Shown here: piece by piece, positions 34,678-36,339 of the stretch
Layout: every line of letters begins with the position of its first letter
Position numbering within the stretch: the first letter of the stretch is position 1
DNA from: a virus
Length of the DNA: 38,727 nt
UHGV virus genome: UHGV-2005300
Strand: one strand, 5' to 3'
Translations under genes and position numbers: made by a program
The notes under the pieces: model-generated
What the model saw: the letters and a program-made list of their open reading frames with translations, nothing else
Database searches by the model: none
Told to the model about the DNA's origin: nothing

Positions 34678-36339
34678 ATGACAGACATTACAGCCAATGT
34701 TGTAGTGAGTATGCCTTCGCAACTCTTCACTATGGCGCGTTCTTTTAAAGCGGTTGCCAATGGCAAAATTTATATCGGTAAAATTGACGCTGACCCGGTA
34801 AATCCTGAAAACCAGATTCAGGTTTATTTAGAGAACGAAGACGGCTCTCACGTTCCTGTATCGCAACCAATCATCATTAACGCTGCTGGTTACCCGGTAT
34901 ATAACGGACAGATCGCCAAATTCGTTACTGTACATGGCCATTCTATGGCTGTTTATGATGCGTACGGTGCTCAGCAGTTCTATTTTCCTAATGTGCTGAA
35001 GTACGATCCCGATCAGCTTAGATCACAGATAGAATACGGGCAGTATATTCACATTCCTGATGGTTATTCACATTATGATGAGTTTGATAATATTCCTCTG
35101 AATATATTGGGTGTGGATTATAGTCCTGTTAATGTATATGATGTTTCTTATGATGTGTTGACTGGTATATTTAAAGTTTCTGTTCAGAATGCAGATAATT
35201 TTCATGTTGGTAAATATTGTATACTTTCTGGCAGGAGAGACATTTCATGTGGAGCGATGATAATTTCCAAGGATGGAAATGTTTTAACATTGGATATGAG
35301 TCACAATGGTATAATTTCAGGCCCGGTTAACGGGGTTGTAGCAAAACCAATAAATTCCATAATAAAAACAACAAAAGGAATACAATTTAGATCAAATATA
35401 TACAGCATAAAAAATGTTGCTATTGAAACAGATGGTGATTACGGACTCATTATCGGAGGTGGATACTACCCTGATTCACAATGTGGTAGTTGCGTAGTTT
35501 GGGATGCAAACAATTTAATTGTAAATGGAGGCTCTGTCTGTGGGGTTCTTGTTTCTGGCTCTGGATCTCAGTTTTGTATCAATGAAGTTCATATTACTAA
35601 CGCAAATATTTCGCTGGAATGTATTTACGCAGCTAGCGTGAAAGGTTTTTCATTTTCATCATACAATTCAAATGAAGACTCAATTAAGGTTGAGCATGCT
35701 TCATCTTGCTATATAAAAGAATTGTCAATTATAAAACCGAAAACTCAGTCTTGCGTAGCGGCTCGTTATTCATCATCTGTAGAGATATCTGATTGTTATA
35801 TGGTTGGAAGTGAAGGTTCAGCATTTGCTACCAGCCAATTTTCCTCATATTTATCATTAAGAAATATTGTTATGCTAGGGAGCGCAAAATATGCGATAAA
35901 CTGCGTCGATGGTGCTGTTGTCGCAATAAATAATATCGACGCCTCTTTAGCTAAAGTGGATTATGGGGTAAGGGTTGAAAAACACTCAGTTTTAAGACAG
36001 GTAGGTATAAATAGCAATTTTTCAGGTTCTATTGCCGATTCGCTAATAAATAACTCTCATGTTGATTTCAATGATATCGTGTTTTCTGGGAAAAAAATTA
36101 AATCAACAATTAATGTTGGTTCAATTAATCCAAACTCTAGATTTTCAATTCAGAGGGTAGCTACTGGATATAAAATAGAAAATGAACTTCCAATCAATAT
36201 GACGGTGTTAGGAGATCTGCCAATAGGGGTTATAACTGATGTATTGGCAATATCAGACGACATGATTCGTGTTACATTCCAAAACACTAGCCCATCACCT
36301 GTTGATGTTGGCAGTGTTGATGTCATTATAGGATGGTAA
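34678..36339 (+). CDS. Tailspike: P22-type head-binding N-terminus fused to an unrecognised receptor-binding domain
   Basis: N-terminal [13 protein letters not shown]...[17 protein letters not shown]...LKYDPDQ matches the P22 gp9 head-binding domain; the rest is AT-rich, Ser/Asn/Ile-rich. Confidence 0.85.

Follow-up and report, generated by a model that had tools for sequence, protein, structure and literature searches.

A Chimeric P22-Like Tailspike with a Rare, Probably Glycan-Cleaving Beta-Helix Module Encoded beside a NeuO-Like Acetyltransferase

Introduction

That P22-like tailspikes swap domains is textbook knowledge, and both the exchange of modules at the head-binding linker and the presence of lysogenic-conversion genes between the tailspike gene and the integrase gene (int) are already well known. 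Among the described systems, the closest counterpart of the locus reported here is CUS-3, a Lederbergvirus of Escherichia coli K1, in which int is inserted at the tRNA-Arg gene argW and the genes for the tailspike, a hexapeptide O-acetyltransferase (neuO), and the integrase follow one another in this order. NeuO O-acetylates the K1 capsule and protects the cell against K1 phage (PMC9659370). In this report, we describe a tailspike gene (positions 34678–36339, + strand) of the UHGV virus genome UHGV-2005300, a stretch of 38,727 nt that was analyzed as a whole and is called the window below. We consider it highly probable that this tailspike of a P22-like argW prophage carries a rare beta-helix module that cleaves a glycan, and that the module was acquired in a low-GC (guanine plus cytosine) cassette together with a NeuO-like acetyltransferase.

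What is new in this locus is a very rare, uncharacterized beta-helix family, tightly linked to a NeuO-like acetyltransferase within a mobile low-GC cassette, and a natural mosaic inside the helix. The receptor-binding modules of tailspikes determine phage host range and are wanted for use as depolymerases in typing, decapsulation, and therapy. If the target is a rare capsule containing 3-deoxy-D-manno-octulosonic acid (Kdo) or the O166 antigen, the module would be a reagent and a specificity determinant not described before; its partner gene may modify the receptor of the spike, and the natural mosaic indicates an exchange point within the helix.

A Conserved Head-Binding Domain Joined to a Foreign Module

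The tailspike gene is an intact open reading frame (ORF) with an ATG start, and encodes a protein of 553 aa (RefSeq WP_349626765.1, “phage head-binding domain-containing protein”). Its position, 3' of the ejection-protein genes and toward the int end of the genome, is typical of a P22-like tailspike, and homologous P22-like backbones agree with it. The head-binding (virion adaptor) domain occupies aa 1–113 (34678–35016, +), where the Pfam family Head_binding (PF09008) is matched over profile positions 1–113 of 113 (E = 3.1e-66); the identity of this domain is 94% to CUS-3, 89.5% to Sf6, and 86% to HK620, and it is matched by the PDB chains 7sg7, 8tvr, 2vky, and 1lkt. The initial annotation of this DNA, made from the sequence, had recognized the P22 gp9 head-binding domain in the first ~110 residues and had remarked that the protein is shorter than its P22 (667 aa) and Sf6 (623 aa) counterparts, and both statements hold. 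The alignments with the Sf6 and P22 PDB chains are limited to aa 1–117. The Sf6 chain matches no further than aa 115 in the separate comparison of its receptor-binding part. The P22 chains stop at aa 117, and no homology to the P22 beta-helix, including its catalytic residues E359, D392, and D395, was found downstream, as the annotation had said of the P22 endorhamnosidase.

Composition changes as well. The first 360 nt of the gene have a GC content of 0.433 and the rest 0.351 (0.48 in the window 5' of the gene), and GC at third codon positions falls from 0.425 to 0.242. The C-terminal 433 residues contain 12.9% Ser, 11.5% Ile, 10.6% Val, 8.8% Gly, and 7.9% Asn, which bears out their earlier description as Ser/Asn/Ile/Gly-rich. 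When positions 34300–37700 were compared with 50,697 phage genomes by blastn, homology ended at ~35016–35018 (codon ~113), within about 25 nt of the point (about 35040) from which the gene had been described as AT-rich. Upstream of this junction, Sf6, Gally, 683R2, and IME10 match at 90–94%. Phage homology restarts only at 37337, in the 3' end of an IntS-type integrase gene whose 3' part (37337–37700) is 97% identical to HK620 int, and the ~2.3 kb in between (35017–37336) has no nucleotide match among these phage records. In a search of 5,426 complete E. coli genomes, both halves of this segment were found in one alone, that of strain 1190 (canine, Edinburgh), from which the window evidently derives.

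Judged by these comparisons, the tailspike is chimeric: its head-binding domain is conserved, whereas its receptor-binding module is unrelated in sequence and foreign in composition. The swap of a receptor-binding module that the initial annotation had proposed is supported in this respect; the exchanged unit, however, is larger than the module. The low-GC tract extends past the end of the tailspike gene to 37336 and takes in a second gene, for a NeuO-like acetyltransferase, and we define the foreign low-GC cassette as 35017–37336 on the basis of the phage and E. coli genome searches and of its occurrence in a second P22-like backbone (see below).

A Beta-Helix Family of Its Own

A linker of 12 residues (aa 114–125; 35017–35052, +), in which similarity to the tailspike genes of known phages is lost at the nucleotide level, leads to the receptor-binding module (aa 126–553; 35053–36339, +). 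In a tblastn search of the same phage records, there was in general no match past aa ~136, and a few Salmonella phages match the tailspike to aa 185 at 55–56% identity. No usable match to the C-terminal part was obtained in Pfam, PHROG, and NCBIfam scans, and none in the PDB, which was searched by sequence and by family profile; a tetratricopeptide repeat-like PDB match (E = 0.028) was rejected as spurious. Comparison of the family profile with the receptor-binding part of HK620 by hhalign gave a probability of 0.3% and no alignment, so its catalytic residues are not transferable. Neither tblastn, nor the PDB profile search, nor hhalign thus aligned the downstream part with a characterized tailspike, in keeping with the earlier proposal of a swap. 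The family itself is very small: a word-indexed search found three clusters among 5.8 billion proteins, and an exhaustive phmmer search found seven representatives among 1.84 billion proteins.

The fold was modeled with AlphaFold2 from the receptor-binding part alone, as a monomer, with an alignment of eight sequences (alignment A3); this run superseded an earlier full-length one with four sequences, in which the predicted local distance difference test score (pLDDT) was 52. The model is confident and all-beta (pLDDT 89.4, predicted template modeling score 0.78), with a small N-terminal beta domain, a right-handed parallel beta-helix at ~aa 215–470, as in the pectate-lyase-like beta-helix superfamily and in P22-like tailspikes, and a C-terminal beta-sandwich at ~aa 471–553. 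A beta-helix had been among the expectations of the initial annotation, and the model bears this out. All of the best Foldseek matches to the model are phage tailspikes or depolymerases. The best match to the whole module in BFVD is the tail fiber protein A0A384WW92 of Escherichia phage IMM-002, which we take to be a T7-like phage (template modeling (TM) score 0.62 on the query, 439 columns); this protein differs in its length (932 aa) and its N-terminal part, and is 16% identical. The module is therefore predicted, from this model, to have the canonical fold of a depolymerase tailspike while forming a sequence family of its own. In the same way, P22 gp9, Sf6 gp14, and HK620 gp9 show no sequence similarity to the window protein past aa ~117–136; the tailspikes of these three phages are 623–710 aa long, in contrast to 553 aa, and their catalytic residues cannot be aligned.

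Twelve polar residues are invariant in the eight family members: D334, K337, E339, Y345, R363, Y364, E369, Q387, Y391, S393, R395, and D411 (numbering of the receptor-binding-part alignment plus 120). They recur every 24–30 residues, which corresponds to one rung of the helix, on the central strands of the model. This spacing would suit a substrate groove extending lengthwise on one face of the helix, and the stretch that encodes these residues (35677–35910, +) is a candidate for the substrate groove or catalytic site. The four invariant carboxylates (D334, E339, E369, and D411) favor a glycoside hydrolase.

A Mobile Cassette with a Partner Acetyltransferase

The second gene of the cassette (36425–37018, −) encodes a hexapeptide-repeat (left-handed beta-helix) acetyltransferase of 197 aa (RefSeq “acyltransferase”). 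Its NCBIfam matches are WbbJ (1e-15, the best), Maa (1e-14), and WcaF (7e-11), all far below the cut-offs; the Pfam Hexapep match is also weak and below the cut-off. It further matches PHROG 30105 (E = 7e-21) and is 33% identical to the NeuO region of CUS-3 over aa 26–198 (E = 1e-20). It is probably a lysogenic-conversion gene. In the three homologues whose context was checked, the gene sits in a glycan locus with an ABC-type exporter (3/3).

The cassette recurs in a different P22-like backbone, inserted beside dacD, in three metagenomic and isolate contigs (L005–L007). These are 99–100% identical to the window over 34832–37393, versus 86–97% in the neighboring virion genes. The spike module and the acetyltransferase therefore move jointly between phage backbones. 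About 60 bp of L005–L007 (~8650–8716) is identical to the 3' end of the IntS gene of the window (37333–37393), and the retention of this remnant suggests that the source of the cassette was an argW/IntS-type phage. The second backbone has its own integrase gene elsewhere, in the other orientation.

More distant relatives carry the module on other adaptors. In protein P0003, which is 60% identical over the module, a TSP1/Gp66-type adaptor (PF18668) stands in place of the P22-type adaptor, and the two proteins can be aligned from the motif IPDG (aa 126–129). The known spikes with the TSP1/Gp66 adaptor, CBA120 TSP1–4 and G7C gp66, differ from the window protein, which uses the P22 adaptor, and the CBA120 spikes are about 10% identical to it. 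P0008, in which Pfam Beta_helix is matched weakly, also contains the module; its podophage-like contig encodes a nozzle protein and a protein of 1,906 aa beside it. Protein P0002 (of the L003/L018 type) is ~100% identical to the window protein to aa ~295 and 55–70% identical thereafter, and its second part (aa ~295–552), derived from a P0003-like lineage, is nearer to P0003 (70–90% identity). This switch, placed by the comparison with P0002 at aa ~293–300 (35554–35577, +), just after a conserved GSGSQ, points to a second exchange point inside the beta-helix. The P0002-type locus also has an ORF of 98 aa, membrane-like, 3' of the tailspike gene, and a different integrase.

Which Glycan Is the Target?

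Strain 1190 offers two surface polysaccharides. Its O-antigen cluster contains “O166 family” wzx and wzy, and a complete group 2 kps locus lies at pheV (L011, NZ_CP023386.1 858927–873746), with region 2 encoding GalE, a 781-aa beta-Kdo transferase, and a 655-aa glycosyltransferase. Of the 5,426 complete genomes, 18 contain the O166 wzy and four contain region 2 of this K type. Because the spike is present only in strain 1190 among the O166 genomes and the genomes of this K type, the distribution among genomes does not identify the receptor, and we regard the capsule and the O166 O antigen as about equally likely targets.

It may be, at somewhat less than an even chance, that the spike is a depolymerase of the Kdo-containing group 2 K antigen of the host and that the acetyltransferase O-acetylates the capsule in the cytoplasm, which would be a CUS-3-like arrangement for a non-K1 capsule. 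The complete kps locus with its Kdo-type region 2 agrees with this, as does a K type that is as rare as the spike, but the spike is missing from all three other genomes of the K type. Among the characterized enzymes with which the acetyltransferase was compared, the closest is NeuO, which acts on a group 2 capsule, and the ABC-exporter loci of the acetyltransferase homologues fit the cytoplasmic modification of ABC-exported polymers, not of Wzx/Wzy O units; on the other side, Wzy-dependent O antigens have hexapeptide acetyltransferases too, WbbJ among them. With the same probability, the spike could instead be an endoglycosidase of the O166-type O antigen that acts in the manner of P22, Sf6, and HK620, and the acetyltransferase would then modify the O unit at the cytoplasmic face, like WbbJ, its top NCBIfam match. 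The “O166 family” wzx and wzy of the host speak for this, and so does the fact that most characterized P22-like tailspikes, those of P22, Sf6, and HK620 included, target O antigens, which also counts against a capsule. According to the PDB entry titles, the spikes of Sf6 and HK620 were crystallized or solved as oligosaccharide complexes, the same slot of HK620 is occupied by a gene for O-antigen modification, and the C-terminal domains of prophage spikes are reported to track serotype (PMC10370184). Against an O antigen stand the 17 other O166 genomes, which lack the spike. The phage O-antigen acetylases known to us (Sf6 Oac and others) are, moreover, membrane proteins of the AT3 type and not hexapeptide proteins. 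A capsule would also mask the O antigen from a phage with a single type of spike, which is an argument for the capsule and, in this encapsulated host, against the O antigen.

Two further explanations concern function itself. We think it unlikely that the C-terminal module is a receptor binder without enzymatic activity, or a lyase or esterase instead of a hydrolase: four invariant acidic residues are placed on consecutive rungs, as is the case in hydrolase tailspikes, and esterase tailspikes have SGNH folds, not a beta-helix. As for a lyase, the ketosidic links of Kdo are not classical substrates of beta-elimination, and the O166 O antigen presumably consists of neutral sugars. It is far less probable still that the gene has no present function, being either the remnant of a decaying prophage or a chimera produced in assembly. 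Its presence in a single complete E. coli genome would be in line with this, but the ORF is intact within an apparently complete P22-like set of virion genes, a 99% identical gene occurs on at least 15 independent contigs, on five IMG/VR contigs, and in the second phage backbone, the differences between the copies are mostly synonymous (12 synonymous, five non-synonymous), and the junction falls exactly on the known domain linker. A pseudogene or an assembly artifact was rejected on the ground that the intact gene recurs on many independent contigs.

We therefore return to the preferred account of a rare, glycan-cleaving module acquired with its acetyltransferase. A P22-like (Lederbergvirus-type) prophage sits at argW of E. 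coli strain 1190. Residues 1–113, the standard head-binding domain, dock the spike, presumably a trimer, onto the phage tail, and residues ~126–553 would bind and cleave a surface polysaccharide of the host, opening the way to the outer membrane. The chemistry is likely to be hydrolysis, and the target may be the O166-type O antigen or the Kdo-type group 2 capsule. The module was gained through recombination at the domain linker, within the ~2.3 kb low-GC cassette. The convergent NeuO-like acetyltransferase may O-acetylate the same glycan in lysogens and so reduce superinfection, as NeuO does for CUS-3.

Several observations weigh against this account. The alignment behind the fold model holds eight sequences only. 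Since the structural matches are 6–18% identical, with Foldseek TM scores of 0.2–0.3 to solved structures, no catalytic mechanism can be transferred from them. The P0002-type locus lacks the acetyltransferase gene, so its linkage with the spike is not universal. Of the three other complete genomes that share the K type, two share O166 as well, and the spike is absent from all three. The parallel with CUS-3 is also incomplete: the acetyltransferase gene of the window is on the opposite strand from the tailspike gene and convergent with it, whereas neuO is co-directional, and neuO has phase-variable heptanucleotide (poly-psi) repeats, whereas Tandem Repeats Finder detected no tandem repeat in 36300–37400. 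Besides, the endosialidase of CUS-3 is unrelated to the beta-helix receptor-binding part described here, and the target glycan of the present spike would not be K1. It is in our opinion rather unlikely that the cassette is a CUS-3-like pair for a non-sialic-acid capsule in the full sense, with a depolymerase of a Kdo-containing K antigen, an O-acetyltransferase that excludes superinfecting phage, and, at aa ~295, a sub-domain exchange that retunes specificity. If true, it would give, to our knowledge, the first phage enzyme defined by sequence and fold whose specificity is for a rare E. coli group 2 K antigen that contains Kdo.

Other Features of the Locus

The gene order of the prophage is that of P22 (gp4, gp10, needle, ejection proteins, tailspike), and it ends at argW, where annotation places a tRNA-Arg(CCT) gene, the attachment site and prophage end, at 38652–38726 (−). 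The IntS-type tyrosine integrase gene (37333–38490, −) was identified by Pfam and annotation. A perfect hairpin, ATAAGGCCAAAA-AAC-TTTTGGCCTTAT (36386–36412, z = −3.07), lies between the convergent tailspike and acetyltransferase genes and is likely to be a bidirectional terminator. On the 5' side of the acetyltransferase gene lies a very AT-rich spacer of ~300 bp (37019–37332, −; GC about 0.2) with one good promoter-like site at 37104–37077 (10 of 12 matches, TG-extended −10); the number of such sites does not exceed chance for the region.

Several short ORFs that overlap 34678–37030, including 36411–36686 (+), encode 40–91 aa in antisense or overlapping positions and are probably spurious. 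In the slot of gp16, an ejection protein, the window encodes a protein of 797 aa (32120–34513, +) with an N-terminal SLT domain of the lytic transglycosylase type (aa 7–110, Pfam E = 3e-25). The gp16 of the second backbone (L005–L007) has 665 aa, and the similarity of that backbone to the window begins only at 32732.
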